From an uncultured delta proteobacterium (GTDB lineage Bacteria > Desulfobacterota > Binatia > UBA9968), in NCBI GenBank assembly GCA_963816145.1, contig CAWFJP010000011.1, positions 416,001 to 480,000 of the forward strand: a DNA stretch of 64,000 nucleotides. Reading direction: 5' to 3'. This document shows positions 27,709 through 52,303 of the stretch, piece by piece (positions within the stretch are counted from its first letter, which is position 1; each line of letters starts with the position of its first letter). The notes beneath the pieces were generated by a model. The model saw only the letters and a list, made by a program, of their open reading frames with translations. It searched no databases and was not told the origin of the DNA. Both the position numbers and the translations under genes were made by a program.

Positions 27709-28425
27709 ATGCGCTACGAATTGTATTATTGGCCGGGGATACAGGGACGCGGAGAATTTATTCGGCTCGCTTTGGAAGACGCTGGTGCGGATTACGTGGA
27801 AGTAGCGCGTCAACCCCAAGGGATGGCGTCGATGTCGCGCTTAATGGAAAGCCCGTCGGTCAAGCGGCCCCCCTTCGCGCCGCCGTTTTTGAAAGCCGGC
27901 AAGCTGGTCATTGGCCAGACGGCGAACATTCTCTTATTTCTTGGCCCGCGCCTCCGACTCGCACCGAAACAAGACGCCGGCCGGCTTTGGGCGCATCAAT
28001 TACAACTGACCATCGCCGATTGGGTCGCCGAAGTGCACGACAGCCACCATCCGATCGGGGGCGGTTTGTATTACGAAGATCAAAAGCGTGAAGCCAAACG
28101 GCGGGCGGGGGATTTCACCGCCGAGCGGCTGCCGAAGTTCCTGAGTTACTTCGAACAGGTCTTAGAGCGCAACGCCAGCCGCGTGCTCGTCGGCAACGCG
28201 GTTTCCTACGTCGACCTTTCGCTCTTTCAAATGATCGAAGGGCTGCGCTATGCATTTCCCCGCGCGATGACCAAGCAAGAACGCAAACACCGGCGCGTGA
28301 TCGCGCTGCACGACCGAGTTGCAGCACGACCACGGCTCGCCAAATATCTTGCGTCCGAGCGGCGCTTGCCCTTCAATCAGGATGGGATCTTTCGCCACTA
28401 TCCCGAGTTGGACGATAGGTCGTAA
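27709..28425 (+). CDS. Glutathione S-transferase
   Basis: YELYYWPGIQGRGEFIRLALE, PFAPPFL, GQTANIL, SYVDLSLFQ. Confidence 0.9.
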   Translation: MRYELYYWPGIQGRGEFIRLALEDAGADYVEVARQPQGMASMSRLMESPSVKRPPFAPPFLKAGKLVIGQTANILLFLGPRLRLAPKQDAGRLWAHQLQLTIADWVAEVHDSHHPIGGGLYYEDQKREAKRRAGDFTAERLPKFLSYFEQVLERNASRVLVGNAVSYVDLSLFQMIEGLRYAFPRAMTKQERKHRRVIALHDRVAARPRLAKYLASERRLPFNQDGIFRHYPELDDRS

Positions 28426-28441
28426 CCTATGTCGACGGCGC

Positions 28442-28972
28442 TCACGACCGAGCATAAGCCGAGCGCCGGATTATTCCAGAATGAGGCCACGACTCGAAAA
28501 CGGGCAGCTTAAGCAGCACGGGACAGGGTAATCTCGAGATCATTTTCAGTAGCTTTCCGCGCGCCATCAGGCGGGGGAAGAACGGTTTCTTTCCATCCGC
28601 AAGCACCACCAGATCGATTCTCTCGGTATTGGCGACTTCCACAATTTTGTCCTCTTTGTTGCCGAGGACTACCCTTCTACTGATTTTCAGCCGGCCGGGG
28701 TTTCTCACAACCTCCTCGATAAATCGGTAAAGATCCAATGCTTTCTCGCGCAACAAGCGATCGAGGGGGATCCCGGCGGGACGATTTAGTGCAGGCAATC
28801 CTTCCATCACGGCCAGAAAGTCCAAGAATGTTTCCGCTTCCTTCTTTTGCGCCACGTGCAGTACTAAGAGTTCAGCTTGGGTTTCCTTGGCCAAGGAGAC
28901 CGCGTATTTGAGTCCGTCAGCGGAATCCTCCGAAAAGTTGACGGGAATAAGAATTTTTTGAACTTCGGGCAT
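28442..28972 (-). CDS. Universal stress protein
   Basis: KILIPVNFSEDS..LLVLHV..IDLVVL..LPCPVLL. Confidence 0.82.
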   Translation of the reverse strand: MPEVQKILIPVNFSEDSADGLKYAVSLAKETQAELLVLHVAQKKEAETFLDFLAVMEGLPALNRPAGIPLDRLLREKALDLYRFIEEVVRNPGRLKISRRVVLGNKEDKIVEVANTERIDLVVLADGKKPFFPRLMARGKLLKMISRLPCPVLLKLPVFESWPHSGIIRRSAYARS

Positions 28973-29068
28973 AAACCTAACCTCCTAATTGACTTAAGAA
29001 ACAACTATCCAAATCGACTACAGCCGATGACTTGAAGAAGCAGACGTTCCGGACGAGAACCGGTGAAG

Positions 29069-29434
29069 TCAGATATTGAGAACCGATTTTGAAATGTAAC
29101 GAGAGACTTTAGGTGCAAGAATCCCTAGAAATACATGTGGGACGACGATGACACTTGGCCGCGCGACGCCGGCGTTTTCACTGGTAGTTAAAAAACCTTC
29201 CGAGCGCGGCGGCAGTTCGCCATACATTTCAAGAATGAATTGGGCGGCCGTCGTCGCCGGAATATTTATTTTAGCTTTGGCGGCGCCAGCATTGTCGTGC
29301 GAGGTTGCCTTTAGCACTGCCGGAATAGGCTGTGCGCTCCGGTCGATAGCCCCGCTGGTGAAAAGGCTGGGAGAGAGAAATGCAAGGCTTAACAAAACCA
29401 ACGCAGCCAATAATATTGTCTTCACGCGTGACAT
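29069..29434 (-). CDS. Hypothetical protein
   Basis: 121-aa ORF with N-terminal hydrophobic segment; no recognised motif. Confidence 0.4.
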   Translation of the reverse strand: MSRVKTILLAALVLLSLAFLSPSLFTSGAIDRSAQPIPAVLKATSHDNAGAAKAKINIPATTAAQFILEMYGELPPRSEGFLTTSENAGVARPSVIVVPHVFLGILAPKVSRYISKSVLNI

Positions 29435-29567
29435 AAAAACATAACGATAGACTCAAGCGTAACATTGATTCGGGCGGTATCAAGACACTCAAGCCTCGAA
29501 AACAAATTGTCATCGAAATGTAACATGTCGCTCGAAACGTAAGATTATTGAGGGCAGGAACAGGGGC

Positions 29568-29866
29568 GCGGCTGCTGAAATTCCCGAGTTATTTCGAGCA
29601 CATCTTCGAGCGCAACGGCATCCGCGTGCTCGTCGGCAACACGGTCTGCTACGTCGACCTGTCGCTCTTCCAGATGATCGAAGGACCGCGCTACGCGTTT
29701 CCCCGCGCCGTGATCAAGCAGGAACGTAAACACCGGCGCCTGATCGTGCTGCGCGATCGAGTGGCGGCGCGCCCGAGGCTCGCGGCCTATCTAGCGTCCG
29801 AGCGTCGCTTGCCCTTCAATCAGGAAGAGATCTTTCGCCGCTATCCGGAGTTGGATGATCGGTCGT
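29568..29866 (+). pseudogene. Diverged copy of the 3' part of the GST gene (about 28125-28423)
   Basis: RLLKFPSYFEHIFERNGIRVLVGNTVCYVDLSLFQMIEGPRYAFPR..YPELDDRS aligns to the GST C-terminus. Confidence 0.88.
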
Positions 29867-30197
29867 GCGGCTGGTCTCAACTTCCCTGTCCAAACAAATT
29901 GGCAAAAATGCAAGCTGTCATCGTCTGACTCGATTTGTTCACACCTCGCCGCCTCTAACGCCAAAAATTTTTTCATCAGCCATCTGGCATGGCCAAAAGA
30001 ATCTGGACTTTTCTACCGCATCGCTGTAGGATTTCGGCTGCGACTTTGCAGGTTCGTTTCCGCATCTCGAGCAAACATTCATTTCGATTCGATGTGGGGC
30101 AGTCGTTTAGCCACTCGCCAGGTGGATAGTTAGATTTAGCCGTCTTTCTTTCCCGCAGCCCGTCTCCATCCTTAGCAAGCGTCGCGGTTTAAACGCC

Positions 30198-31337
30198 GTG
30201 GACAGGTTAATGTCACTGCTAATTCTAGTTCTGTGCCTTTGCCGCACCTTGGCATTCGCACAAGCGGAAGTTTCCGACGCGTTTCCATCGGAAATTCCCG
30301 ATGCGACAGAACTCTTTGCAAAATCGTTCGCCGGCATCAGTGGGGCGCAAATCAATCTCACGCCGCCGTCGTCGAAGCAACTTCTTGCCTTGGAGTTCGG
30401 CTCCAAGCTAGTGGAATTGAAAGCGACCTACTTTGAGAACCGTCTGGAGCAACCGGCGCTCCTCGGCAGCGTGGGCGATCATGGTGATCTCAAAGGGCGG
30501 GGGAAATATGCCGATTTACTGGCCGTATCCTCACAATTTGGCGGCAAACTCATCGGCGAGGCCGAAGCCGCCTACAGCACGCTCGGCTTCCCGGCATCGA
30601 GCGATCAGCTACCCATAATGACCAGGTTAGAAGTTCACGGAAGCTGGGGAAAGGCGGGTTATGGATTGTCCAATCGCTCTTCCGGCCCCGGTTATGTATC
30701 GCCCGCTGGCGTCAAGATCGACCACGCGCGCGATGAACGGCAACTCTGGGCGGACTATGACTTGAGCCCATATCGGGTTCGCGGCGCCGTTGGTGAAATG
30801 TGGGAAGAAAACGCTACAACCCATCAATTGACCCTTACCAGAACGACGGCGACATCCCTTTACCTGAACAAACCGAGCTGGAACGCCGATTTGTCGTCGA
30901 GTTATTCAACGGTAGCGAACAGCGAACATTTGGATCAAAGGACTCTGGCGTTCACCAATCGACTTTCCTTCACCTACCGGTTCACTTCGCTGTTTACGCT
31001 TGAGCCCAACCTGAGCTTCAAGCAGGAATGGGCGCCGATCACGGGACTTAAGACCGACACAGGTTCGGCAGGTTTCGGTTTAACTTTTACGCCTTCTCGC
31101 GACCTGCAATTGATCGGACGCGTTTCTTACGCCCGCGACTCGAGCGATGACCCGCTGAGAGCGGGATCGATGGTAAATGGCGCCACTGCTTTGAATTGGA
31201 TACTCGGTAAATCTTTTTTGGGCGAGCAATCGCTGTCGCTGCAACTGGAATACAAGAACGAATCCCGACTTACGATACCGGACAATCAGCAGGCAAATTT
31301 CACCGGATCGGTTCAGTTCAAGCTCCTGGGCTTTTGA
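30198..31337 (+). CDS. Secreted hypothetical protein, probable outer-membrane beta-barrel
   Basis: Signal peptide (AFA); alternating amphipathic strands; C-terminal GSVQFKLLGF ending in Phe. Confidence 0.55.
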   Translation: MDRLMSLLILVLCLCRTLAFAQAEVSDAFPSEIPDATELFAKSFAGISGAQINLTPPSSKQLLALEFGSKLVELKATYFENRLEQPALLGSVGDHGDLKGRGKYADLLAVSSQFGGKLIGEAEAAYSTLGFPASSDQLPIMTRLEVHGSWGKAGYGLSNRSSGPGYVSPAGVKIDHARDERQLWADYDLSPYRVRGAVGEMWEENATTHQLTLTRTTATSLYLNKPSWNADLSSSYSTVANSEHLDQRTLAFTNRLSFTYRFTSLFTLEPNLSFKQEWAPITGLKTDTGSAGFGLTFTPSRDLQLIGRVSYARDSSDDPLRAGSMVNGATALNWILGKSFLGEQSLSLQLEYKNESRLTIPDNQQANFTGSVQFKLLGF

Positions 31338-31599
31338 GCGGCAGACTCTCCGTCGAGAGCAATGACGGTCAGGACTCCTGATTCCTTATTTATCGCTGGG
31401 TAGCTGAGGAGATTCCAACTGCGCCGTCCAATTTTGAGTTTGTCCTCATCGAGGATTCCCGTTCGGCATACTGGTCAGACGATTCATCGGCGCAAGATAC
31501 TCCGACCCGGCGGCCTTAAACCCGCGCATTCGCCAAGTCTAACCTGAGCGAGGCTAAGAAAATGCAACGTCCTGCTCGACGTCGATAGTTTTCCGCACT

Positions 31600-31836
31600 G
31601 TCGGCAACACGGTCTGCTACGTCGACCTGTCGCTCTTCCAGATGATCGAAGGACCGTGCTACGCGTTTCCCCGCGCCGTGATCAAGCTGGAGCGCATACA
31701 CCGGCGCGTGCTCGCGCTACACGACCGAGTCGCAACGCGCCCCCGCCTCGCCGCCTATCTCGCGTCCGACCGGCGCTTGTCCTTCAATCAGGAAGAGATC
31801 TTTCGCCGCTATCCGGAGTTGGATGATCGGTCGTAA
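31600..31836 (+). pseudogene. Second diverged copy of the GST 3' part (about 28189-28425)
   Basis: VGNTVCYVDLSLFQMIEGPCYAFPR..FNQEEIFRRYPELDDRS*. Confidence 0.88.
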
Positions 31837-31949
31837 GAGAGCGACCGCATGTCCGATAACGGCACTGGGAACTGAATCAAAACTTGGGCTCGAGTCGAAC
31901 AACCAAAAACACCGATTGGTTCGAGAATAGTCAAGCTGCAAGCGTCCGG

Positions 31950-32084
31950 TGTAGTGATTCGGTTCGACCGAGATCTCTCACTGCGTTGGATATCACAAAT
32001 CGACTAGTCTGCTGTCAGTTCGAGCGCAGCGAGAAATCTTTCTCCGGATGAAGACGCATGGCGGACTCGAACTGAACCACTACC
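31950..32084. mobile_element. MITE, inverted relative of the 12419 element
   Basis: tGTAGTGATTCGGTTCGA...TCGAACTGAACCACTACC; flanks GCGTCCGG / GAGTCTGG (6 of 8 match, decayed TSD); same internal REP palindrome. Confidence 0.7.
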
Positions 32085-32253
32085 GAGTCTGGCCCGATGC
32101 CCTATCGACTCCCTGTTCTATTCCTTCGTTGTGCCAAGTTCCGGCGGGAAGTTTGCTGACCAATGTTGCTGTAAGCCGGGTGTAATGCTAGCCATCAGCT
32201 ATGTTTGGCTGAATCTCTACTGTAGTGAGCCAGGCACGTCCAGGGGGTTGCTC

Positions 32254-34380
32254 ATGGGGTTGAAAGATCAGCAGACGCGACAGAATAGCGATTTGGCGCC
32301 GGCGGCGCGCGGCCAACCGGCCAGCGCCAGACCGGGAGGCCCGAAGGGTGCCGTGCAGGCGAAGCTGCCGCCGAGCAAGACCTGGTTATGGTTCCTAGGC
32401 GCCTTGCTCGCCAACTACTTGCTAATGCGGTTCCTGTTTCCGGCCACTGCAGGACCCATCACAGTGCCCTACACGCTCTTCAAGGAAGAGGTCGGCAAGG
32501 GCAACGTCGAGGCAATCTATAGCCGCGGCGAGAGCCTCACCGGCCGCTTCGTGAAGCCGGTCACCTATCCCCCGGCGGACGCAAAGGATGCGGCGCCCGG
32601 AGGTAAGGACAAACCGACGAGCGAGCCCAAGGCGATGCGCGCCGGCCCGCCAAGAACCGGAAGTACCTTCACGACCACACTTCCCTCCTTCGTCGACCCC
32701 GGTCTAGAAGCGTTTCTGATCGATCACCATGTCGAGATCAGCGCCCAACCGATCGAAGAAGGGGGGAGCTTGTGGTCGACGATTCTTTTCGGGTTCGGCC
32801 CGGCGCTGCTCTTCATCGGCTTTTACGTCTGGATGTTTCGGCGGGCAGCGCAACAGGGCGGCGGCCTAGGCGGCGGGCTCATGGGCATCGGCAAGAGTCG
32901 CGCGCGCCGCTACGACCAGGAGAAGGATACAAAGGTCACCTTCGACGACGTCGCCGGTATTGATGAAGCCGAGAACGAACTGGTCGAGATCGTCGATTTC
33001 CTCAAGGACCCGGCGAAGTACACCCGCCTGGGCGGGGCCGCTCCGAAAGGCGTGCTGCTGGTCGGCGCGCCGGGCACAGGAAAGACGCTGCTGGCAAAGG
33101 CCGTCGCAGGAGAGGCTGGGGTGCCGTTCTTCTCGATGAGCGCTGCCGAGTTCGTCGAGATGATCGTCGGTGTCGGGGCAGCGCGCGTGCGAGATCTCTT
33201 TACAGAAGCTCGCAAGAACGCGCCGGCAATCATCTTCATCGACGAGCTCGATGCCATCGGTCGCGCCCGCGGGCAGGTGGTGATCGGCGGGTCGAGCGAG
33301 CAGGAGCAAACCTTGAACCAAATCCTCACCGAAATGGACGGCTTCTCCAGCCGGGAAGGCATCATCGTGCTGGCAGCGACCAACCAGCCGGAGGTGCTCG
33401 ACAAAGCGCTTCTGCGGCCTGGGCGCTTCGACCGGCGCGTTGTGGTTAACCTACCGGACAAGACCGGTCGCGAGGCGATCCTCAAAGTTCACACCCGCGC
33501 CATGCCACTGGCGAAGGACGCAAACTTAGGAGAAATCGCCGCCACGACGCCGGGCTTCTCAGGAGCGGATTTGAAAAATCTGGTTAACGAGGCGGCGCTG
33601 CTGGCGGCGCGGCGCGCGCAGAATGACGTCCGTTACAAAGATTTTCTCGATGCGCTGGAGAAAATCGTGCTCGGCCCCGAGCGGCCGCTGCTCTTGAGTC
33701 GCGCCGACAAGGAGCGCATTGCCTACCACGAGGGCGGACACGCGATCCTCGGTCTGGTGGTGCCCGGCGCCGATCCGGTGAATCGGGTGACGATCGTGCC
33801 GCGTGGTCAGGCGCTCGGTGTGACCTACCAGCGACCTGAGAGCGACCGCTACAACTATCCGGAAGCCTACCTGCGCGCGCGGATCGTCGGCATGCTCGGC
33901 GGCCGCGCCGCCGAAGAGATTGTCTACGGCACCAAGACGACGGGAGCAGAAAGCGACATCGAACAAGCCACCAGCCTGGCCCGCCAGATGGTCACGCGCT
34001 GGGGCATGAGTGAGCGGCTCGGGTTAGTCCAGCTTGCGCCGCGGGAGAACCCCTATCTTGGCAGCCCCGGCGGTTACGGCGCCTCGAAGCCATTTAGCGA
34101 GGATACCGCCGAAGCCATCGATGCCGAGATCCGGAAGATCATCGGCGAGAGCCACGAGGAGGCCAAGCGCCTGCTGACGGTGCATCGCAGACAACTCGAC
34201 GCGCTCGCCGAAGCTTTGGTGGCGTGCGAGACTCTCAACGAGCAGGAGATCCTCGACGTCACGGGACTGCCGCCGGCGCCTGCTTTGGAAACCCGGATCC
34301 TGTCGGCAACAAATGGCGACGGCGCAAGCGCTGCCCCCGCTCACGAGGACGCGAAGTCGCGGCTATCCGACAAACCGTGA
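32254..34380 (+). CDS. ftsH: ATP-dependent zinc metalloprotease FtsH (probably an accessory paralog)
   Basis: Two TM helices, VTFDDVAG, Walker [30 protein letters not shown] zinc motif, LGGRAAEE. Confidence 0.93.
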
Positions 34381-34437
34381 CCTGGCGCATGAGTCGCTTG
34401 GAAACTAGCCTACGAACGTAAGCTCGTATCTTCGAGG

Positions 34438-34830
34438 ATGTCCGTTATGGAAAAAACTCTTGCTCCGTTTGCACCCTACGCCTTCGCCATCTTGCGGATC
34501 ATCGCCGGGCTGTTGTTCGTTGCGCACGGCGGGCAGAAAGTCTTTGGCTGGTTCGGCGGCCAGCCGTTTCCTCTCGGTTCGCTCTTCGGTCTGGCGGGAA
34601 TCATCGAAATAGTTTTCGGCATCCTCATTACCATCGGTCTCCTCACCAGCTTTGCAGCTTTCATCGCCAGCGGCCAAATGGCGGTCGCTTATTTCATCGG
34701 CCATCTCCCAAAAAGTTTCTGGCCGCTCGAAAACGAAGGCGAGCCGGCAGTGCTGTTCTGCTTCATTTTTTTGTTTATCGCTACTCACGGTGCGGGGATC
34801 TGGAGTGTCGACACCGCACGGGGCCGGTAA
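34438..34830 (+). CDS. DoxX family membrane protein
   Basis: LRIIAGLLFVAHGGQKVFG, ASGQMAVAYF, PLENEGE, GAGIWSVD. Confidence 0.88.
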   Translation: MSVMEKTLAPFAPYAFAILRIIAGLLFVAHGGQKVFGWFGGQPFPLGSLFGLAGIIEIVFGILITIGLLTSFAAFIASGQMAVAYFIGHLPKSFWPLENEGEPAVLFCFIFLFIATHGAGIWSVDTARGR

Positions 34831-34893
34831 CGGTTTGCCGTACGTGTCGTAGGTGCGCTCGAGAATCACCGGATCTTTTTGCCGGGCCAACTC
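34829..34893 (-). pseudogene. Short remnant of the 3' region of the SBP gene at 37962-38960
   Basis: 34844-34893 matches 38149-38198 at 48 of 50 nt; 34829-34841 resembles 38110-38122. Confidence 0.8.
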
Positions 34894-35026
34894 GTGGGGC
34901 GCAGTGCAAATTTAACTGGAAGATCCCGCCTTCTAGCTCCCGGACCCTGGCCCCAAATTACCAGCCAACACAAGTTGCAATCCCGGGCGGCTATCAAATA
35001 TTGTGGCCGAGGTGCTTGGAGGTTCG

Positions 35027-36385
35027 ATGCCGGAGTTGGATTCGGTCGACAGCGATATCCTCGTCATCGGTGCCGGAGGGTGCGGTCTCATGGCTGCTCT
35101 CGTGGCGGCGAAAAAGGGCGCGCGGGTGCTCCTGTTGGAGAAGACTGACAAACCGGGAGGCGGGACTGCTTTCTCCTCCAAGGGCATCCGCGCCGCCGGC
35201 AGCCGCCGGCAGCGCGAGTTGAAGATCGCCGACAGTCCGGCACTCTACGCCCAGGATATCCTGCGCCGGAACAACGACGAGAGCGATCCAGTCCTGACCC
35301 AGCGGCTCGCGGAAACTTCTGGGCGTGTGGCCGATTTCCTGGCCGATACGGCGGGAATCGAATTTCAACTCGGCGAGTTTGCCTTTGGTCACGGGGCGCA
35401 GCGATCGCACTCGTGGAAGGCGGATAAAACCATCACCGATTTTCTCTTCGAAGCAGTTGAGCGGGAAAAAAATATCCAGGTGCGATTCTCGACGCCGGTA
35501 TTGTCGCTCCAACAGGACACGGGCGGCGCGGTAACCGGCGCGGCGACAAAAGACGGCGCGCTCTCAGCGCGAAAAATTATTCTCGCCTCGGGCGGCTTCG
35601 GCGCGAGCGCGGAGTTGTTGGCCCGCTACATTCCCAAAGCGCTGGACATTCCTTTTCCAGGTCACCACGGCAGCACCGGCGACGGCATCAAGATGGGTTT
35701 GGCGATCGGCGCGGCGGCGGAAAACATGGGCGCCTTCCAGCCATACCCCGCATACATCGGCCCGGGAAAACGCGCGGTGGCGCCAGAGGTGGCTCTATCG
35801 GGCGGCATCATGGTCGACGCCGGCGGCAAGCGTTTCGTCGACGAAACCCGATATCCCGGTGGGCTCGGCATCAAAATGCTCGATCTGCCCGGCAAGCTGG
35901 CTTACGAAATCTGCGACGAGCGTATCTACCAGCTGCATCGAAACGCGCCGGGACTGAGAAACCTATCGATCTACTTCGACGCGGGACTTTTGCTCAAGGC
36001 CGACACGCCGGAACAACTCGCAGGCAAATTGGCCATCGACGCCGAAGGCCTGAAGCGAACCATTCAAGAGTATAACGACAGCGCGGCAAGCGGCGCCAAG
36101 GACGCTTTCGGTCGCGCGCTGCCGCAACCGTTCCAAGGACCCTTCTATGGCATCAAAGTCACGGTGGCGCTGTACCACACCCAAGGCGGGTTGAAGGTAA
36201 CCCCCGACGGCCAAGTCCTGCGCAACGACGGCTCGATCATCCCCAACCTTTACGCCGGCGGCGGCGTGGCCGTCGGCGTATCCGGCAAGGGTTTGGAAGG
36301 GTATCTACCGGGCAACGGGTTGCTCGCTTCTCTGGGTCTCGGCATGAGAGCGGCGGAGCACGCGGCGACCTCGCTCGATAAATAA
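35027..36385 (+). CDS. FAD-dependent oxidoreductase (flavocytochrome c / FAD_binding_2 family)
   Basis: VIGAGGCG, LLEK..PGGGT, LASGGFG, STGDG, RFVDE, HTQGGL, PNLYAGG, GNGL. Confidence 0.85.
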   Translation: MPELDSVDSDILVIGAGGCGLMAALVAAKKGARVLLLEKTDKPGGGTAFSSKGIRAAGSRRQRELKIADSPALYAQDILRRNNDESDPVLTQRLAETSGRVADFLADTAGIEFQLGEFAFGHGAQRSHSWKADKTITDFLFEAVEREKNIQVRFSTPVLSLQQDTGGAVTGAATKDGALSARKIILASGGFGASAELLARYIPKALDIPFPGHHGSTGDGIKMGLAIGAAAENMGAFQPYPAYIGPGKRAVAPEVALSGGIMVDAGGKRFVDETRYPGGLGIKMLDLPGKLAYEICDERIYQLHRNAPGLRNLSIYFDAGLLLKADTPEQLAGKLAIDAEGLKRTIQEYNDSAASGAKDAFGRALPQPFQGPFYGIKVTVALYHTQGGLKVTPDGQVLRNDGSIIPNLYAGGGVAVGVSGKGLEGYLPGNGLLASLGLGMRAAEHAATSLDK

Positions 36386-36496: not shown

Positions 36497-37726
36497 TCAA
36501 CGGTTGGCTGCAGGCGTTATGCGCAATATCTGGCCGTCGCGTGAGTCGGTGAGAAGATAGAGCGATCCATCCGGCGCCTGGCACACGTCGCGGATGCGTT
36601 CTCGTAAATCACCCAGGTAACGCTCTTCTTGGGCGACCTTGCCGTCCTTCATCACCAGCCGCACCAACCCTCCCGGAGTGAGCGAGCCGATCAGAAAATC
36701 GTTCTTCCAGCTGGAGAAGAGATCGCCGGTATAAATCGCCATACCTGAGGGCGCGATCACCGGATCCCAATAGTAGACCGGCTGCTCCATCCCGGGTTTC
36801 GCCGTGCCTTCGCCGATCTTCAAATAAGTGTAGTGGGTACCGTAAGAGATGACCGGCCAGCCGTAATTTTTCCCCGCTTCCGGATGGTTCAGCTCGTCGC
36901 CGCCGCGCGCGCCATGCTCCACGGTCCAGAGCTGGCCGGTCTCAGGATGAAGCGCCGCGGCTTGGACGTTGCGATGGCCATACGACCAGATCTCCGGGCG
37001 CGCGCCGGCGCGATTGACAAACGGATTGTCGCGCGGCACCGAGCCGTCCGAGTTGATGCGCACGACCTTGCCGAGCGTCGCCGACAGGTCCTGGGCCCGC
37101 TCGGAGTGATTGAACCGCTCGCCCAAAGTGACGAACAGCGTGCCGTCGCGATGAAAAACAATCCTCGACCCCCAGTGATTGGCGCCACCGACCTTGGGCT
37201 GCTGACGCCAGATCACCTTGGTGTCTTCCAGCCCGCGCTCGCCCAACCGCCCGCGGGCGACCGCGGTGCCTGCGCCGCCGTCGCCGGCTTCAGCAAACGA
37301 TAGGTAAACGAGCCGATCCTTGGCGAACGTCGGGCTGACGGCAACGTCCAGAAGCCCGCCCTGCCCGCTCGCGTAAACCTCCGGCACTCCGGTGAGCGGC
37401 GCGGAAACGCGGCCGTCCGCTCCGACCAAACGCAAGCGACCTGGACGTTCGGTGACCAGCATCCGCTTGTCCGGCAGGAATTCGAGGCCCCAGGGATGTT
37501 CCAGCCCTTTGGCGATCGATTGGACTTGAACAATTTGATTCACCGAGGCTGGCGTTGGCGAGCGCGGTGCCTGACCTTGCACCGGCCCGGGCGCACACCC
37601 CGTGAGCCAAACAAATAGCAGAGACAGTTTGACGCAATCGGCGCTAGACAACTTGCGAAAAGTTTTCGACTTCAACTGTTCTGGGCGGGCGCTGAAGAGC
37701 GAAACAGAGCGTTTATTCGGAAGCAT
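36497..37726 (-). CDS. PQQ-dependent sugar dehydrogenase (soluble glucose/sorbosone DH family)
   Basis: LEHPWGL, VTERPGRL, GQGGLLD, HWGSR, SYGHRN, EHGARGGDELN, NYGWP, APSG. Confidence 0.9.
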   Translation of the reverse strand: MLPNKRSVSLFSARPEQLKSKTFRKLSSADCVKLSLLFVWLTGCAPGPVQGQAPRSPTPASVNQIVQVQSIAKGLEHPWGLEFLPDKRMLVTERPGRLRLVGADGRVSAPLTGVPEVYASGQGGLLDVAVSPTFAKDRLVYLSFAEAGDGGAGTAVARGRLGERGLEDTKVIWRQQPKVGGANHWGSRIVFHRDGTLFVTLGERFNHSERAQDLSATLGKVVRINSDGSVPRDNPFVNRAGARPEIWSYGHRNVQAAALHPETGQLWTVEHGARGGDELNHPEAGKNYGWPVISYGTHYTYLKIGEGTAKPGMEQPVYYWDPVIAPSGMAIYTGDLFSSWKNDFLIGSLTPGGLVRLVMKDGKVAQEERYLGDLRERIRDVCQAPDGSLYLLTDSRDGQILRITPAANR

Positions 37727-37961
37727 GAATTTCCCTCCTGAGATACCCTCGCTGCAAATGGCTGCGTAGCACACCTGTGCCATACGCTCAGAGCATAAAA
37801 TGTGAAGTAGGGTGGGATCAACCAGCGATTTGATTTAGGCCGTCGTCAGACAGAAAATAACGCGATGTCGATTGGAACAGAAAATTGGAAGGCGCGAGTG
37901 GGTCTGCGCCCGAGTATTCAGTTGGGTTGCTGCAAAATTTGCCGACGATCTTTGTCGCGGA

Positions 37962-38960
37962 TTATTTCTTGCCGAGCTTTAGCCTCTCTGCGGCTTTCTG
38001 CACGAAAGAGGGATCGAGAGATGCCGAAGCATCGCGGTTCTTGATGCCCTGCGGATTGAAGCGCTCGTGGAAGCCGGTGATCATGCTCTCGATACCTGCT
38101 TGCCAGGGAAACGGCAGGCCGTCGATGGCCTCATATTGTTTATAATAGGTGTCGTAGGTGCGCTCGAGAATCACCGGATCTTTTTGGCGGGTCAACTCCA
38201 CGATGGCTTTGAAAGCCAATTGCTTGTTGGTGCGAAACAACTGCATGCCGGCGACATGGGCGGTCATGTAATCTTCCAAGACGCGGCGATTGCGATCGCG
38301 AAAAGCCCGGTTCACCGTGTGCGGCACGCCGGCGTAGGGCATTTTTAAATCGAGGAAGTTGACCAGCTCGCGATAGCCGGCCTTTTCAAGCTCGTATTCA
38401 TTGGGCGGATTGACCGCCACGCCGTCGATCAGCCCCTGCTTCATCGCCGCCACCCGGCTGGGAATTCCGCCGGCAAGATAGACCATCTGCACGTCTTTTC
38501 CCGCGACGAGGCCGAGTTTGTCCAAATAGAGCAGGGTCGCGTACTCGTCGAGACCGGCGCGGCCGGCGCCAAGTTTCTTGCCTTTCAGATCGGCAGGGGT
38601 GCGGATCGACGCATTGACCATCAAGCGCACCGGCACATAGCGGGTTTCGGTGGCGATCACCATGACATCGAAATCTTTGGTCGCAATCGCCCGCGACACC
38701 GCGGTGCCGCCGCCATAAAGCACCTGAATGTTACCATTGGCCAACGCCGGCATATAGGCCGACGCACCCTGCATCAAAACCATCTCCACGTCCAAGTTGT
38801 ATTTAGCAAAGATCCCCTCGCGCCGGGCGATCCAACCGGGACAGAAAGTCGCCGCCGGCGAAGCATAGGCAACGACGAGCTTGGTCGCCTCGCCGTAGGC
38901 GGCGCCGAAATCCGCCCGCAGCGAAAACAACAGAAAAATTACAAGCGCTCTTTTGGTCAT
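37962..38960 (-). CDS. ABC transporter substrate-binding protein (SsuA/NMT1-like)
   Basis: Signal peptide; ARREGIFAKYNLDV, ADLKGKKLG. Confidence 0.85.
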   Translation of the reverse strand: MTKRALVIFLLFSLRADFGAAYGEATKLVVAYASPAATFCPGWIARREGIFAKYNLDVEMVLMQGASAYMPALANGNIQVLYGGGTAVSRAIATKDFDVMVIATETRYVPVRLMVNASIRTPADLKGKKLGAGRAGLDEYATLLYLDKLGLVAGKDVQMVYLAGGIPSRVAAMKQGLIDGVAVNPPNEYELEKAGYRELVNFLDLKMPYAGVPHTVNRAFRDRNRRVLEDYMTAHVAGMQLFRTNKQLAFKAIVELTRQKDPVILERTYDTYYKQYEAIDGLPFPWQAGIESMITGFHERFNPQGIKNRDASASLDPSFVQKAAERLKLGKK

Positions 38961-39124
38961 CTTCTCTCGCCTCAATCCGCGTCCTGATCGATCGGTATCG
39001 CCGCCGTCACGCGGAAACTAATATCGGCACGCAACTTAGTCCAAGCGCAGCGGGCATGTCCAGGATCACATGAGCAGCAGATCCGACCGCCCTACTTCAG
39101 TGTCAATGAATCTTTGAGGCACGA

Positions 39125-41240: not shown

Positions 41241-41385
41241 TTCTCCCGCAAAGGCGCAAACTCGCTAAGGCAAGAAAGAAATGTCATTTCGACCGAAGGG
41301 AGAAAGCTGTCATAGATCCCTTGCATTCACTCGGGATGACGGGCATCAGCCCGTCACCTTTGCGCCTTGGCGCCTTTGCAAGAGA
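41241..41385. repeat. Composite REP-like element, inverted relative to the 40183 copy
   Basis: ctcccgcaaaggcgcaaa...tgtcatttcgaccgaagggagaaa...cgggatgac...ctttgcgccttggcgcctttgcaagaga. Confidence 0.7.
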
Positions 41386-41461: not shown

Positions 41462-42433
41462 ATGACCATGCAGAAAACGATCACAACTTTGTTTATCGCG
41501 CTCGTTTTACTTCTCTCTGCCACGCCGGCGGCGGCGCAGCTAAAAAAAGTGCGTTTGTCGGCGACCTCTATTGCCGTGACGGAATTACAATTTCGCATCG
41601 CCCTGCTCAAAGGCTTTTATCGCGACGAGGGGCTCGACGTTGAAATTATTCTGATTCGCGGCGCCGTCGGCATGCAGGCGCTGCTCGGCGGATCGGTGGA
41701 TTATACCTCGGCGGCGGGATCGATCATTGCCGGGGCCGTACGCGGCGTGCCGGTGCGGCTCGTCCTGGTCGTCAACACCAAACCGCAATTCGATCTGGTC
41801 GGCCAGCCGGACATCAAAACCGTGGCGCAGTTGAAGGGCAAGGTCGTCGGCATCTCGTCGCGCGGCGGAGCGGTGGACATCCTAACGCAAACGATTCTTT
41901 CCCAGCATGGAGTGACGGCGAACAAGGATGCGACCTTAATCGTCATCGGCAGTCCCGAAGAGTTGGTGACCGCGCTGCGCACCGGCCGCATCGCCGCCTG
42001 TCTGCTCACCCAGCCGCGCCAACTGATCCTTTACCGCGACGGCTTCACCAAGCTGGCCTATTCGGGCGATTATCTGAGCAGCTATCCCACCGGCGGCGTC
42101 GGCACGACGGAAGAGAAAATCAAAAATAATCCCGCCGAAGTCATGGGCTTCGTCCGCGCCAGCTTGAAGGGGCAGCACTACTTCGCCCAGCATCGCAGCG
42201 AATCCATCGATCTCATTTCCAAATATCTCGGCATCAAGGACCGTTCCTTGGCCACGGAAGTCTACGATCTCCAACTCAGCCGTCTTGGCGGAGCGACTTA
42301 TCTCGACGAAATCTGGATGCGCGGCGCCATCGAGTTCACCAAGAAGAGCATGGGCTTGACCAAAGAAGTTGCGCCCAACCAAGTGTTCGATTTTAGTTTC
42401 GCCGCGAAGGCGTTGGGACGTGGCAAGAGTTAA
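41462..42433 (+). CDS. ABC transporter substrate-binding protein (SsuA/NMT1-like)
   Basis: Signal peptide; KGFYRDEGLDVE, ALLGGSVDY, QLKGKVVG, VFDFSF. Confidence 0.87.
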   Translation: MTMQKTITTLFIALVLLLSATPAAAQLKKVRLSATSIAVTELQFRIALLKGFYRDEGLDVEIILIRGAVGMQALLGGSVDYTSAAGSIIAGAVRGVPVRLVLVVNTKPQFDLVGQPDIKTVAQLKGKVVGISSRGGAVDILTQTILSQHGVTANKDATLIVIGSPEELVTALRTGRIAACLLTQPRQLILYRDGFTKLAYSGDYLSSYPTGGVGTTEEKIKNNPAEVMGFVRASLKGQHYFAQHRSESIDLISKYLGIKDRSLATEVYDLQLSRLGGATYLDEIWMRGAIEFTKKSMGLTKEVAPNQVFDFSFAAKALGRGKS

Positions 42434-46546: not shown

Positions 46547-46927
46547 CCGCCGAGAATCGAAACCGCATTTAACGTCTCCTTCGCTTTGATCTAAAGACTT
46601 CACAAGGCTTTTTTCCGGTCATTGATTGCCGTGGCCGACTTATCCACTTTCACGGTCCGATTCCCCTCGCAACGACCCGAGTCCCGGTTCGATTTCGGGT
46701 ATCCCGCCTCAATATCAACGCCATCTTAAGAACAACCAAGCCACACACACCTCCCTCGCCGGCTCGACGTTTGCGATTGGGTCCAAGGCCCCTCCATGTT
46801 AGCGTGATCCCTGATGGTGCGCTTGATCATAGCGCGTGAACCGGCCACTCTTCGATCAGGCCGGCCACCCGCATGAATCGGCACGGTCACACGCAGATAA
46901 ATGAATCCCCCGGCAAAGGAGCGGAAA

Positions 46928-47125
46928 ATGGATGACAAAGCACAGATTCAAGACGCCTACGGTGCGATGATACAATTGAAGTTCAAAGTGTTCTTCGAAT
47001 CATTCACGGCCGCTCATGGCGACTCCGAACAGGAGCGCAGCGCAGAAGAGCGCTTCAAGGGTGGTATTGTGCATGCTCTCTACATCCGATACCGGGCCAT
47101 CGCGCTGTTGCAGCCGGGCGCGTGA
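46928..47125 (+). CDS. Small hypothetical protein
   Basis: AAGGAG RBS; MDDKAQIQDAYGAMIQLKF.. Confidence 0.45.
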   Translation: MDDKAQIQDAYGAMIQLKFKVFFESFTAAHGDSEQERSAEERFKGGIVHALYIRYRAIALLQPGA

Positions 47126-47133
47126 GTGAGACT

Positions 47134-47335
47134 CTACCCATGCCGCGACGGCCGGCCAAACCCGCAATCGGTTCGCGCATCCCGATCCTGTGCAACGCCT
47201 TCCAGGTCCAAGCCTGGATGTTGGCGACGACCGGTTTATCGCTCGCCTTCTCGATCCGTTCGATGACTGAGACCGTGCGCCACTTGTTGGACTGCATGTA
47301 GACGCCGTCAACATCGGGATATTCGCGCAAGTGCG
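47134..47335 (-). pseudogene. Diverged copy of the 3' end of the 51596-52303 gene
   Basis: LREYPDVDGVYMQSNKWRTVSVIERIEKASDKPVVANIQAWTWKALHRIGMR vs LREHPDVDGVYMPCNKWRTVSVIERIEKESGKPVVTNTQAWTREALHGMGMR. Confidence 0.88.
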
Positions 47336-47672: not shown

Positions 47673-47687
47673 TGGTGCGGCGTTTGC
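47673..47687 (+). promoter_or_regulatory. Putative sigma-54 promoter upstream of the histidine kinase
   Basis: TGGTGCGGCGTTTGC (GG-N10-GC) 60 bp before ATG 47747. Confidence 0.5.
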
Positions 47688-47746
47688 TGTAAGACTCGCG
47701 AGAGTATTGTCTAGCGTCATCTCGTTTTCGCGAGAACCGGCAGAAA

Positions 47747-50164
47747 ATGATTGAGTTTGCCTCAAGTCTCAGGGGTCGTTTAATCGCACTTGTGCTGCTG
47801 GCGCTTCTGCCAGCTTTCTGCGTTATCTTATTCACCGATCAAAGACACCGCGCTTCTATCGCTACCCAGGTGCAGAAGAGCGCTCTCGGATCTGCCCGCG
47901 TCATCGCCACCGAACAACGGCGGATATTCGAGAATGCCCATCAGTTACTCATTACCCTGGCGCGGTTGCCCCAGATCCGCGAGCACAATAGCGTCGCATG
48001 CGAAAAGATTCTGGTTGGATTATTGGAGCCGCTGTATATCGATCTCGGAGTCTTTGATCCCAAGGGCAATTTGCTGTGTAATGCATCGGGCGCCAGCGCC
48101 TACCAAGGCCGCCACCTAAACAACTCTCTCATCCGCCGCGTCGTTGAAACCCAAGATCTAACGGTGGGTGAAATCCAACAGGATGCGTCGAACGGCAAGA
48201 CGGTCATCGAGTTGGGGTTTCCCGTTAGCGATGCGCCAGGCATTCTTCGCGGCATCGCATTCGTCGTCTTGGATTATTCCTGGATTGTCCGAATTACCGC
48301 CGTAAATCATTTACCTTCAGAAGCGTCATTTACGCTCTTCGACGACCAGGGTAGGGTCTTTCTGCGTTACCCGGAAGAAGCAATAGCGGTCGTTACGCGT
48401 ATTCACGCCGGGGTTCCCGTTGGTGCAAACCTCGTTCGAGGAGTCGAGGGGAACATCGAATCCCTCGGCGTGGACCGCGTGGCGCGCCTCTTTACCTACC
48501 GGCAATTGGACAACCGTATAGCCGGGAACATTTATTACGTAGGGATCGACATCCCAGCTCGGGCAGCGTTTAGCGAATCGGAGCGCATACTTCGGCAAAA
48601 CCTCCTGGTTCTCGGCGGCTTGGCAACGTTAACTTTGGTCGCAGCCTGGTTCGGCGCCGATCTGTTCGTATTGCGCCGAGTGCGTGATTTGATGAGTGCC
48701 ACAAGGGAACTAGCCTCGGGCAATTTGACGGCACGCACGGGTCTGCCCTACGGCGAGAGTGAGCTCGGACAGCTTTCCCGGACCTTCGACGATTTGGCAC
48801 AGACACTGGAGCAACGCGCGGCAGACGCCAGAGTGGCAGAAACGAAAATTCAAACGCAGCACCTACGCCAAAGCGCCATTCATGAAATCAGTGCGGCAAT
48901 GACCTCCAGTCTCGATGTCGGCAATGTTTTAAATGCTCTTCTCAACGGTGTCGCCGCCCTGTTTCCCTCGTCATATGCGACTCTGAGCTGGTTGGATGAG
49001 CATAGCGGAATGATCGAGACCGTTGGTCAGCCGACGCGAAACGAAGCTACGGACAAGCAAATTTCCGCCAATAGCGAACTAGGTCTCCCTAAGGAAGTCG
49101 TCAAACTAAAGTCTCCCCTGCTGATCCCGAATGTTCAGTTGGATTCGCGGGTGTCGGCCCCGGATTACCTGCGCGCCGCGGGCTTTGTCACGTACCTAGG
49201 CCTGCCGATGATCGTCAAAGATGAAGTATTGGGCGTCCTATCTTTCTATTCAACGGAAGCTATCGACCTAAGACCCGAAGAAGAGATTTTTCTAACTGAC
49301 ATCACGCAACAGGCGGCCATCGCGCTTCACAACTCACGTCTGTACGAGCAGACCAAGAATCAAGCTACCGAGCTCGAGAAATCGAACCGGATCAAAGACG
49401 AATTCCTGGGAGTGATCTCTCACGAACTGCGCACACCGCTCAATATCATTATGAACTGCGCGGAAGCACTGAAGATGGGTGTGTTTGGCGAGATCACCGC
49501 GGAGCACGAAAAAGGCACGGAAAAAATTAGAACCCAGGCAAGCCATCTGCTGTCGCTGATCAACGGCATATTGGAAATCACCAAAATCGAAACCGGCGGA
49601 ACCAGCCTCAACCTCGAACCCATCGATCTCAATGCGCTCAGCAGCGAGTTAGAATCCGACTATGCCATGGTGTCTAAGGAAAAACATTTGGCGGTTAATT
49701 GGCACATGCCGGCCAATCTGCCCCGCATCACTTGCGACCGCATCAAACTGCGCCAGGTAATAATCAACCTGGTCAATAATGCCATCAAATTCACGGACGA
49801 GGGTTCGGTGGACATATTCTTCCGTAGCGTCGCGGACGAACCGTTCTTCGAGGTCTCGGTAGCGGACACGGGCATCGGCATGGCTGATGAGTTTTTGCCA
49901 CACATTTTCGATAAATTTCGCCAGATAGACAACTCCACCACGCGAAACTACTCCGGCACCGGGCTTGGGCTTTACCTGGTCAAGGGCTTCCTCGACCTAC
50001 TGGGCGGGACGATCGGCGTAAAGAGCAAGGTCGGTGAAGGAACGATTTTCACCGTACGGATACCGGTTCGTACGGCGGTTAGCATTCGCGCAGACCAGGG
50101 TCTACCGCGCAAGCTATCCACTGGCGGCGACGTTTCACAGCCATACATTGAAGGAGAGTTGTGA
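47747..50164 (+). CDS. Sensor histidine kinase (dCache-HAMP-GAF-HisKA-HATPase)
   Basis: Two TM helices; HAMP (ELGQLSRTFD); GAF; SHELRTPL H-box; NLVNNAIKFT, DTGIG, GTGLGL. Confidence 0.92.
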   Translation: MIEFASSLRGRLIALVLLALLPAFCVILFTDQRHRASIATQVQKSALGSARVIATEQRRIFENAHQLLITLARLPQIREHNSVACEKILVGLLEPLYIDLGVFDPKGNLLCNASGASAYQGRHLNNSLIRRVVETQDLTVGEIQQDASNGKTVIELGFPVSDAPGILRGIAFVVLDYSWIVRITAVNHLPSEASFTLFDDQGRVFLRYPEEAIAVVTRIHAGVPVGANLVRGVEGNIESLGVDRVARLFTYRQLDNRIAGNIYYVGIDIPARAAFSESERILRQNLLVLGGLATLTLVAAWFGADLFVLRRVRDLMSATRELASGNLTARTGLPYGESELGQLSRTFDDLAQTLEQRAADARVAETKIQTQHLRQSAIHEISAAMTSSLDVGNVLNALLNGVAALFPSSYATLSWLDEHSGMIETVGQPTRNEATDKQISANSELGLPKEVVKLKSPLLIPNVQLDSRVSAPDYLRAAGFVTYLGLPMIVKDEVLGVLSFYSTEAIDLRPEEEIFLTDITQQAAIALHNSRLYEQTKNQATELEKSNRIKDEFLGVISHELRTPLNIIMNCAEALKMGVFGEITAEHEKGTEKIRTQASHLLSLINGILEITKIETGGTSLNLEPIDLNALSSELESDYAMVSKEKHLAVNWHMPANLPRITCDRIKLRQVIINLVNNAIKFTDEGSVDIFFRSVADEPFFEVSVADTGIGMADEFLPHIFDKFRQIDNSTTRNYSGTGLGLYLVKGFLDLLGGTIGVKSKVGEGTIFTVRIPVRTAVSIRADQGLPRKLSTGGDVSQPYIEGEL

Positions 50165-50883
50165 TGGGACCAATCATCCTACGTAACTTCATGACGGGCT
50201 ATTCGTCGATGCTCATCCTGATGGTGGCCATCTCGGGCTATTCGTCGATTCAATTGGGCAAACTCAGCGAATCCGCGAACCTCGCAGTCAACGTCGAACA
50301 GCGCATGATCGACCACTCGGAAAAACTCGCCGATGCTTTCCTGTCCGAAGTAAGATACGCGGGCAAATTCATTGTTACCCACGCCGCCGTACACCAAGAT
50401 CAGTCTAAACAATTCAAAGGTGACTTCGATCGCTACCTGGCCCAATTAAAGGCTCTACACGGGCCAAAGGATGCGGTTCAGCGCTTGGCTCGCACTGAAG
50501 AATATCATGCGCAGTTTTATCAACTGTTCGAGAAGGAAATTGATTACATCAACAACAAGCAGCCCTATGCCGAAAGCCGCTACCGGGAAGAAAGAGAGCG
50601 CCTTGTTGATTATTTGCTCAGAGAACTTGATGCATTTAAGAACGATCTCCACGAGAGTTTGCAGCAAAGAATCGCGGATATTGAACAGGCAGCGCTCAAA
50701 AGCCGAAGGATCACTTTAGGCGCCACTCTGCTACTGGTTGGTTTGGGCGCTATCTTCGCCTATCGCCTATATAGCAAAATCTCCAGTGAAGGGACGACCT
50801 CCAGTGCCGCTCGCGAGAATGCGCTGTTGGGTGGATGGTTGCGGTCCATGTCCTGGCGGAAAGGGTTTGGTATGTCGAAATGA
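50161..50883 (+). CDS. Two-TM protein with periplasmic four-helix-bundle sensor domain and no cytoplasmic kinase
   Basis: TM - helical periplasmic region - TM - short tail. Confidence 0.6.
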   Translation: MMGPIILRNFMTGYSSMLILMVAISGYSSIQLGKLSESANLAVNVEQRMIDHSEKLADAFLSEVRYAGKFIVTHAAVHQDQSKQFKGDFDRYLAQLKALHGPKDAVQRLARTEEYHAQFYQLFEKEIDYINNKQPYAESRYREERERLVDYLLRELDAFKNDLHESLQQRIADIEQAALKSRRITLGATLLLVGLGAIFAYRLYSKISSEGTTSSAARENALLGGWLRSMSWRKGFGMSK

Positions 50884-51413
50884 AGATTCGACGATTACGG
50901 CGTTATTTGTGGTTTGCGGCACTATTGGGGTCAGTTTGGATACCCGGCTGCACGCCCTTAAGCGGGGGACCGGATACGCTCGTTCCCGAGGGTAAAAAAC
51001 CAACCGGGCCCTTCGAGCAAAGCAATGCGTTATTTTCCCACGGACAATACGAGGCCGCCTACAACGAAAACCAAAAAATACTTCAGGAAGGTCGGGGCGC
51101 GCCCGACGTGGCACTGTTCAACATGGGAATGATTTCAGCCCATTCGGCAAATCCCAAAAAAAATTATCCACGTGCCCTTGCAGCGTTTCGCACACTCGTC
51201 GTGGAGTATCCTCAGAGTCCGATGATCGAACCTGCCAAGACTTGGATTCAAGTTCTTGAGGAGTATCAAAAACTGGCCGATGAGAAGCGTGTCCTGATGA
51301 GGGAACGAGAAGCGTTGGGGCAAGAAAAGGACAAGCTCAGGTTTAGCGTCGAGAGGTCACGGCAGGTCGATGTCGATATCGAAAAAAGAAGGCGGGATGC
51401 TTTGCGAAAATAG
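50880..51413 (+). CDS. TPR-containing lipoprotein with coiled-coil tail
   Basis: Lipobox-like IPGC; ALFNMG..KNYPRALAAFRTLVVEYPQSP. Confidence 0.7.
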   Translation: MKIRRLRRYLWFAALLGSVWIPGCTPLSGGPDTLVPEGKKPTGPFEQSNALFSHGQYEAAYNENQKILQEGRGAPDVALFNMGMISAHSANPKKNYPRALAAFRTLVVEYPQSPMIEPAKTWIQVLEEYQKLADEKRVLMREREALGQEKDKLRFSVERSRQVDVDIEKRRRDALRK

Positions 51414-51595
51414 CCATGGGGTGATTATTCTCGCCGATTTAGCAGATTTGCGGATCGAGGCTAAGTCCTGACTGGTTCTTCTTGTCGATTAACTGCGCCT
51501 GCGCACTCAGAATCGGTCAGATCTCCTCTGCCCGGTACGCGAAAGACTTTTTCCTAGAGTTGGCATACTTCAACGCAGTTTGGTGGGCTCACGCT

Positions 51596-52303
51596 TCATC
51601 CTAACCGCAACAGCCGGCCAAAGCCCGGGATAGAGTCGCGCATACCCATTCCATGCAGCGCCTCCCGGGTCCACGCCTGGGTGTTGGTGACCACCGGTTT
51701 GCCGCTCTCCTTCTCGATCCGCTCGATGACTGAAACCGTGCGCCACTTATTGCATGGCATGTAGACACCGTCGACATCGGGATGTTCGCGCAAGAGCGCC
51801 ATCGACAAATCGTAACCGGTCTCCGGCGCCAACTGCCAAATCACGTTGGCGTTGGGACAGCCCAAGCCGCGAAACGCGACGACCTCGATACCGTCGTGGG
51901 CGAGGAATTTGACCAGCCGCTCGTCTTGGTCCTCGGGAAACGGCGAAGCCATCACCACACGCTTGAGTCCCAGCGCGCGGCAACCGCGCGTCACTGCGGT
52001 CAAAACCGTCGAAGCCGGCGTCGGCGTGATCTGTTTGACCAGTCCAAGGATCTCGCGATCCGAACCCGGTCCTTTGTACGAAAGAAACAGCTCGCCAGTC
52101 ACCATCAAAAAATCCAACGGCTGCTTGACCAAGTCGTGCACGAGTCCTTGGAACATTAATTCTGCTCGGTGAAACTCGTCGTCGGTGTACTTGCCGACAT
52201 GTAACGTCCGTGCTTCGATGCGAATGTCCTTGGGAAAGATCTTGTAAACATCCGCCAAAGTCTCTTCACTCGAATTCGGTGAAATCAGTCCGATCAGTTT
52301 CAT
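51596..52303 (-). CDS. Asp/Glu racemase superfamily protein (arylmalonate decarboxylase/maleate isomerase-like)
   Basis: IGLISP, ALGLKRVVMASPF, DGVYMPC, IEKESGKPVVTNTQA, PGFGRLL; start may be further upstream (ORF to 52366). Confidence 0.82.
   Translation of the reverse strand: MKLIGLISPNSSEETLADVYKIFPKDIRIEARTLHVGKYTDDEFHRAELMFQGLVHDLVKQPLDFLMVTGELFLSYKGPGSDREILGLVKQITPTPASTVLTAVTRGCRALGLKRVVMASPFPEDQDERLVKFLAHDGIEVVAFRGLGCPNANVIWQLAPETGYDLSMALLREHPDVDGVYMPCNKWRTVSVIERIEKESGKPVVTNTQAWTREALHGMGMRDSIPGFGRLLRLG

Follow-up and report, generated by a model that had tools for sequence, protein, structure and literature searches.

Displaced 3' gene tails in an uncultured Binatia genome as candidate scars of integrase-free, homology-anchored gene capture

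How do truncated copies of the 3' end of a gene come to lie downstream of their intact parent, on the same strand and with other genes in between? The question is raised by a 64,000-nucleotide (nt) stretch of DNA from an uncultured soil delta proteobacterium of the Binatia (G000:C11:416001-480000, hereafter the window; the genome, G000, comprises 7.82 Mb in 31 contigs). Here, genes for a GST, an arylmalonate-decarboxylase-like protein (AMDase), and an NMT1-type SBP are each followed by intervening genes, termed cargo, and by a partial copy of their own 3' region. Such displaced tails recur across the genome, and we judge the chances to be slightly better than even that they are scars of repeated gene capture that is anchored by homology and proceeds without an integrase. 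The parents and their copies, located by BLASTN of the three parent genes against the window and by a window self-BLAST at E<=1e-5, are as follows.

27709-28425, plus strand: intact GST gene, parent 1 (Pfam GST_C_3, E 1.6e-30)
29568-29866, plus strand: GST tail 1, matching nt 417-715 of the 717-nt gene (84.3% identity over 299 nt, BLASTN E 1e-91)
31600-31836, plus strand: GST tail 2, matching nt 481-717 of the gene (84.0% over 237 nt, BLASTN E 1.5e-70)
51596-52366, minus strand: intact AMDase gene, parent 2 (Pfam Amdase, E 6e-26)
47143-47335, minus strand: AMDase tail, matching nt 569-762 of the 771-nt gene (83.0% over 194 nt, BLASTN E 1e-52)
37962-38975, minus strand: intact NMT1-type SBP gene, parent 3 (Pfam NMT1, E 5e-10)
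34841-34893, minus strand: SBP remnant, matching nt 778-830 of the 1014-nt gene (94.3% over 53 nt, BLASTN E 1e-17)

The original prediction described three loci at which an intact gene is followed by cargo and a displaced 3' copy, and BLASTN confirmed that every copy lies downstream of its parent in the same orientation. Both GST tails are where they had been placed and start at different points of the gene (nt 417 and nt 481), and the AMDase tail is present as well, its predicted start (47134) being a few bases wider than the BLAST limit. The SBP copy also exists, with a predicted start (34829) that was a few bases too wide, but it comes from inside the gene, close to the 3' end, and stops short of the stop codon rather than being terminal; at the protein level (tblastn) it covers amino acids (aa) 257-297 with 54% identity (34804-34902). 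GST tail 1 has lost its stop codon and has a ratio of nonsynonymous to synonymous substitution rates (dN/dS) of 0.20, tail 2 shares the end of the gene with the same stop codon, and the AMDase tail has a dN/dS of 0.28 and one 1-nt indel. Tails are called as short open reading frames (ORFs; e.g., 29548-29928 and 31642-31836). The two GST tails are 90.6% identical to each other, and this pair and the GST, AMDase, and SBP tails account for five of the seven non-self pairs in the window self-BLAST. No integrase, recombinase, or tRNA had been noticed in the window, and scans of it agree, with 0 tRNA genes and no match to PF00589 or PF00239.

Every G000 contig was searched against itself for partial gene copies, using 6742 genes called with a codon model trained on G000 itself. 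Parents had to be at least 450 nt long, and copies had to cover at most 75% of the parent and lie within 15 kb of it; copies inside a comparable paralogue were dropped, and repeat families were removed. The 102 partial copies found in this way are distributed by type, side, and strand relative to the parent as listed here.

3' tail, downstream, same strand: 33
3' tail, upstream, same strand: 2
3' tail, downstream, opposite strand: 3
5' head, upstream, same strand: 6
5' head, downstream, same strand: 2
5' head, upstream, opposite strand: 4
Internal piece, any position: 52

Partial copies are therefore not randomly placed or oriented, as had been anticipated: 33 downstream 3' tails stand against 6 mirror-image 5' heads upstream (binomial p 1.4e-5) and 2 heads downstream (p 3.7e-8). 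The 33 tails belong to 29 parents, four of which have two tails each, and individual contigs carry 0-7. Hence, the claim that the arrangement recurs holds genome-wide, but the three loci of the window are not fully independent, as all of them fall in a single variable region of 25 kb. Roughly a dozen internal pieces resemble the SBP remnant in lying in the last quarter of the gene, downstream and on the same strand. Parent and tail lie a median of 1749 bp apart (270-9519), and identity to the present tail of the gene is 74-96% (median 84.3%). Copies on other contigs or farther off comprise 30 of the 3' type, 24 of the 5' type, and 133 internal pieces, and because these distant copies are symmetric, the 3' bias close to the parent is not a detection artefact.

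Both junctions of the tails are abrupt. Homology ends -17 to +11 nt from the end of the stop codon in 33 of 33 tails, exactly there in 11, and this sharp edge persists even at 92-96% identity. The first filter was biased against long overhangs; a looser one brings in about 12 more, with overhangs of 17-160 nt beyond the stop, and the true distribution of overhangs peaks sharply at the stop codon and trails off on one side only. Sequence blocks shared with G003 (one of the four nearest species representatives, with G004, G038, and G040, at 82-86% DNA identity to G000, in a comparison set of 31 species representatives) likewise show a tendency to stop about 10 nt or less from stop codons, and extend 30-200 nt upstream of start codons. 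Repeated turnover may wear shared sequence down to the part that selection protects. At the left edge of the tails, the run of bases identical to the gene is 2-25 nt long (median 7, at least 15 nt in 6 of 33); later divergence could have eroded a longer core common to gene and tail.

The divergence between tails and genes carries a signature of selection. The 33 tail-gene pairs have a median dN/dS of 0.23 and a median dS of 0.49, so that they differ mainly at synonymous sites; this dS equals the median across 25 pairs of orthologues from the region in G000 and its nearest species, and 19 of the 33 tails contain neither a frameshift nor a stop (14 contain one or the other). In simulations of in-place duplication for the 28 loci long enough to test, in which the tail evolved neutrally, the gene evolved at omega 0.1, and divergence was matched pair by pair, median dN/dS was 0.41, and the observed value was lower at 27 of the 28 loci (p<=0.05 in 14). 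Most of the divergence therefore dates from a time when both sequences belonged to working genes, under purifying selection; since there is one such gene per site in a genome, the second allele must have lived elsewhere. This selection signal is the main support for an incoming homologous allele.

The genes that lie between the GST gene and its tails in the window are as follows.

28442-28972, minus strand: USP gene (Pfam Usp, E 6.7e-16)
29069-29434, minus strand: ORF of 121 aa (h121), between USP and GST tail 1
30198-31337, plus strand: ORF of 379 aa (h379), cargo 2, no Pfam family

GST orthologues in the four nearest representatives are 83-86% identical at the nt level, and what follows them differs. 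In G003, the order is GST, a 144-aa ACT-domain gene, a short GST tail, USP-h121, 7.7 kb of other sequence, a 220-nt tail, and h379. In G000 and in G010, where a single alignment spans the GST-USP adjacency (window 27688-28768), USP directly follows GST, and these two genomes present the empty site for the ACT unit of G003, in line with the polarity of insertion in the original prediction. The USP-h121 block (28442-29434) is 83% identical in G003 and is probably an older neighbour of GST rather than new cargo, as the original prediction had it. Orthologues of h379 occur downstream of GST in G003, G004, and G040 at varying distances. A single 84-nt GST tail lies 5.3 kb downstream of the gene in G040, there is none at the GST locus of G004 or G038, and among 80 more distant GST loci, a 3' tail was found in 0 and short N-terminal fragments in 2. 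The G038 GST orthologue (L116:14136-14852) aligns in two pieces (aa 1-211 and aa 213-236), which suggests a frameshift or sequencing error near its 3' end.

The ACT gene, the short GST tail, and about 67 nt beyond it form a 718-nt unit that occurs in four genomes and four contexts at 89-92% identity (G000:C18:125513-126228, L009:15894-16610, L117:10968-11688, and L011:7327-7928), and is better conserved than GST itself (about 85%). The G000 copy lies on another contig than the window, away from any GST gene, and shares 91.6% identity with the copy in G003 and 91.1% with that in G040.

At the AMDase and SBP loci, the cargo and neighbouring genes are these.

47747-50164, plus strand: histidine kinase gene, AMDase cargo (Pfam)
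50161-50883, plus strand: gene for a CHASE3 protein, AMDase cargo (Pfam)
50835-51413, plus strand: ORF of 192 aa, AMDase cargo, within the block 47747-51413
46901-47125, plus strand: ORF of 74 aa (h74), conserved neighbour of the AMDase tail
35003-36385, plus strand: FAD_binding_2 gene, SBP cargo (Pfam)
36497-37783, minus strand: glucose/sorbosone dehydrogenase (GSDH) gene, SBP cargo (Pfam)

AMDase orthologues in G003 and G004 are 92-94% identical at the aa level. In both species, h74 also adjoins a decayed AMDase tail (alignment scores 41-45 vs shuffle maxima of 14-16), and the tail is older than the split of G000 from G003 and G004. The cargo in front of it differs by species, with SBPb-glyoxalase-NMT1c in G003, a 3' fragment of NMT1c in G004, and the kinase block in G000, for which the top matches in G003 and G004 (70-72% identity) are found on other contigs. 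NMT1c is whole in G000 (41462-42433) and in G003; G004 (L013:3503-4078) retains aa 132-323 only, at 92% identity, and plain deletion also yields 3' fragments here. SBP orthologues in G003 and G004 are 91-94% identical at the aa level, and G003 has a 165-nt terminal SBP tail on the matching side of the same FAD gene. The dS of the FAD gene (0.15 to G003 and 0.23 to G004) lies below the median of 0.49 for the 25 orthologue pairs, which suggests that this gene was recently exchanged between species.

Further loci were compared with related species. At the C3 locus (parent G000 411506-412594), G038 has the parent, 157 nt, and then the gene that follows the tail in G000, an empty site that again agrees with the polarity of insertion. 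G004 has its own 181-nt tail at this locus, and G003 and G040 have other inserts and no tail. At the C30 locus (parent G000 218640-219158), which has two tails in G000, no tail is present in G003, G037, or G038, and one tail lies behind different cargo in G040.

Independent assemblies support the structure. Of the 24 sequencing runs listed, 19 contain at least half of the sampled words of 27500-32200. Logan contigs from four other runs, belonging to four studies, span the junctions at the GST locus and the SBP remnant at 95-99% identity, namely GST/USP, h121/tail 1, tail 1/h379, h379/tail 2, tail 2/flank, and the SBP remnant. The bridging contigs cover the following parts of the window.

27796-29676: contig X2 record 17
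27500-29536: contig X5 record 25
29659-31644: contigs X2 record 18 and X5 record 26
31627-32175: contig X14 record 6
34304-34924: contig X2 record 24

These contigs end inside the tails, where breaks are expected because the tails are repeats. A chimera assembled from strains that co-occur in one metagenome bin is extremely improbable: G000 does have an estimated contamination of 6.7%, but the bridging contigs come from independent assemblies, and tails occur at the same loci in related species. In run X17, the USP-h121 block (28568-29635) has almost no cover, 0 in three depth bins and 0.72 in the fourth (29102-29368), with GST and h379 covered; this gap may be an assembly gap or a strain without the block, and no contig joins across it.

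Cargo and parents are varied. Among 52 predicted cargo proteins of 26 tail loci, there is no mutual similarity at E<=1e-5. A family scan of 20 cargo proteins from 12 further loci identified, among others, UPF0182, an NMT1 SBP, CinA, a MazE-like antitoxin, a PemK/MazF-like toxin, a DnaJ-domain protein, carbonic anhydrase, DUF1353, META, and an AAA ATPase; seven have no family, and none of the 20 is a recombinase or transposase. Toxin-antitoxin parts are present in 2 of the 12 blocks, as a MazE-like antitoxin (L099:2947-3294, contig C31) and as a PemK/MazF-like toxin with a 76-aa partner ORF (L103:2786-3327, contig C14). The 15 scanned parents comprise five NMT1 SBPs, two MFS transporters, a 3-HAO cupin, a TPR/LysM protein, an adenylate cyclase, an amidohydrolase, a caspase-like peptidase, the GST, the AMDase, and one protein without a family.

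An insertion anchored in the 3' part of a gene accords with the layout, the empty sites, and the signal of selection. In the capture that we favour, incoming DNA would carry the 3' part of a homologous allele together with its neighbouring genes and would pair with the resident gene. One homologous exchange would then insert it, whether by single crossover of a circle or through an event like homology-facilitated illegitimate recombination (HFIR) with one homologous end. The resident gene would stay whole with a new tail, the cargo would follow it, and the old tail, still joined to its old downstream flank, would end up behind the cargo. Insertions that break the gene or sever it from its promoter would be lost, leaving a 3' bias. 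We infer the recombination route, the donors, and the role of selection in causing the bias.

Architecture, polarity, selection, and the lack of a recombinase support part of the tail replacement put forward in the original prediction, but the phylogenetic breakpoint that it expected was not found, nor was a donor. The trees were expected to break between the 5' and 3' parts of the gene, with the remnant grouping with the vertically inherited allele. Instead, the displaced tail at C3 is sister to the present tail of the gene (support 100/100), on a long branch (0.11 vs 0.009), and at C30 the gene and both tails form one clade (88/91). In the GST tree, tails 1 and 2 form a sister pair (99/98) that joins alleles of other species and stands apart from the present G000 tail (83-85/94); as a test of a foreign origin of the present tail, this discordance is not significant, and a single G000 clade is not rejected by the approximately unbiased test (AU p 0.135).

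Besides these trees, several other results weigh against homology-anchored capture. No donor was found among the 31 species representatives; if this reading is right, the donors would be closer relatives outside that set. Four of six further loci (L096, L097, L099, and L101) are too rearranged in relatives for an empty site to be recognized; homologues of the cargo occur elsewhere in the relatives' genomes for L096, L097, and L099, and no cargo match was reported for L101. The same pipeline gave 3 tails downstream and also 3 upstream in 800 kb of G004, from the same genus, and 2 tails and 2 heads in 800 kb of G020, from another family of the order; the pattern itself is not confined to G000. 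Ku is absent from the genome, and the illegitimate step of HFIR would need another pathway. Lastly, the reading leans on a selection argument to account for the 3' bias and, for one of its two routes, on a putative circular intermediate.

Other origins can be set against the same observations. It is unlikely that the tails are remnants or satellites of site-specific elements whose enzyme has been lost or acts in trans, such as islands of the e14-in-icd type or homing-endonuclease-type ORFs. Elements of this kind insert in the 3' end of a gene and carry a replacement tail, and Escherichia coli K-12 has the same layout of gene, cargo, and displaced 3' fragment, in which e14 begins 165 nt before the end of icd and leaves the 165-nt fragment icdC. 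The 6 of 33 tails that start with 15-25 identical bases, and one 46-nt remnant on contig C15 near a PF00589 integrase gene, are further points in favour of such elements. However, e14 is 15 kb long and carries intE and xisE, whereas here the cargo measures 0.27-9.5 kb and has no recombinase. PF00589 has only 11 matches genome-wide, for 29 different target genes, and 0 of them lie inside the 33 tail loci; PF00239 has no match in the whole genome. Cargo as short as 0.27-0.9 kb, the lack of a family common to the cargo proteins, and the median identical run of 7 nt at the left edge also speak against a site-specific element.

In-place duplication, tandem or partial, with one copy then deleted or decayed and no foreign DNA involved, would explain why gene and tails form one clade at C3 and C30. 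Parents often come from large families (5 of 15 are NMT1 SBPs), and the NMT1c fragment of G004 is best read as a plain deletion remnant. Random decay, however, predicts equal numbers of heads and tails downstream, against the 2 and 33 counted; no cargo occurs in duplicate, even the most similar tails lose homology at the stop codon, and dN/dS falls below the simulated values at nearly all loci. The configuration counts and dN/dS lead us to reject decay of tandem paralogues, and in-place duplication as a whole is improbable. That the tails are silent cassettes kept under selection and recombined into the gene, as in pilE/pilS, would agree with the low dN/dS, with the 19 tails free of frameshifts and stops, and with the two-tail arrays of four parents. 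We regard this as highly improbable, as 14 of 33 tails carry a frameshift or stop, the tails of G003 and G004 are badly decayed, and the parents are enzymes, transporters, and binding proteins without a known need for variation.

Two further candidates were tried and discarded. Template repeats of the diversity-generating retroelement type were rejected, since mismatches show no adenine bias (adenine makes up 23.9% of 934 mismatches vs 23.3% of aligned bases) and no reverse transcriptase is present among the scanned cargo. Short dispersed repeats are not enriched as cassette borders, being present at 7 of 33 loci vs 7.5 expected.

Beyond passive scars left by capture, it is possible, although we propose it only tentatively, that the tails serve as portable homology sites of an integrase-free cassette system of the RecA type. 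Cargo plus tail would loop out between two tails, move among related genomes, and re-enter at the parent gene, so that the docking site would collect, swap, and lose cargo in an integron-like manner at dozens of ordinary genes. The AMDase tail-h74 junction with three cargoes in three species fits such a system, as do the differences in cargo before the tail at the same gene between G000 and G040 and between G000 and G004, the two-tail arrays at four parents, and the 718-nt ACT-tail unit in four contexts. Like integrons, these loci have rows of one- or few-gene units with a repeated element between them and additions beside a fixed point. They differ in that no IntI is present at the loci and no attC-like repeat is common to them, the repeated element being the parent's own tail.

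Related displacements have been described for toxin loci. For rhs C-terminal displacement, single crossover of a circular intermediate has been proposed (Jackson et al. 2009, PMC2935791), and for type VI secretion system (T6SS) effector-immunity arrays, displacement by HFIR (Kirchberger et al. 2017, PMC5361080). Rhs and related systems (CDI/MafB orphans and T6SS arrays) resemble the loci described here in that 5'-truncated copies follow an intact gene in the same orientation, at times several in a row, and in the absence of an integrase, the proposed route being homologous recombination with a circle, or HFIR. The displaced tips in those systems are non-homologous toxin domains with immunity genes, whose variety is selected. 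In contrast, the tails here represent ordinary alleles (74-96% identity), the genes in between make up the payload, and 29 different genes are involved. Parents include GST, AMDase, SBP, MFS, and amidohydrolase genes, with metabolic, transport, and signalling cargo. In HFIR, one homologous anchor inserts non-homologous DNA (de Vries and Wackernagel 2002; Prudhomme et al. 2002, as cited in PMC5361080). The single homologous anchor for a non-homologous insertion is what the two have in common. HFIR usually deletes recipient DNA, whereas here the old tail is kept.

Two kinds of repeat were also recorded in the window. An inverted repeat pair (40187-40313 and 41242-41372, 127-131 nt, 79% alike) flanks a glyoxalase-family gene (40323-41135). 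A dispersed repeat of about 135 nt, present at 31951-32082 and 12421-12549, has more than 25 copies in the genome, occurs in related species as well, and folds as a long imperfect hairpin (-51.9 kcal/mol, z -2.4). This repeat has no Rfam match and no enrichment at tail loci, and an Rfam scan of the window gave 0 matches.

Among the literature matches listed, no genome-wide integrase-free tail displacement at ordinary genes was described; the present analysis adds a count over the whole genome, tests of asymmetry and of selection, and a comparison across species. If homology-anchored capture is the correct reading, genes that remain intact at these sites may combine two alleles in one chimera, a point of importance for gene trees and annotation. 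Gene-tail scars would then allow integrase-free gene gain in uncultured bacteria to be recognized and dated in a simple manner from the sequence by itself, and the displacement route of toxin loci would act on ordinary metabolic genes throughout a genome.

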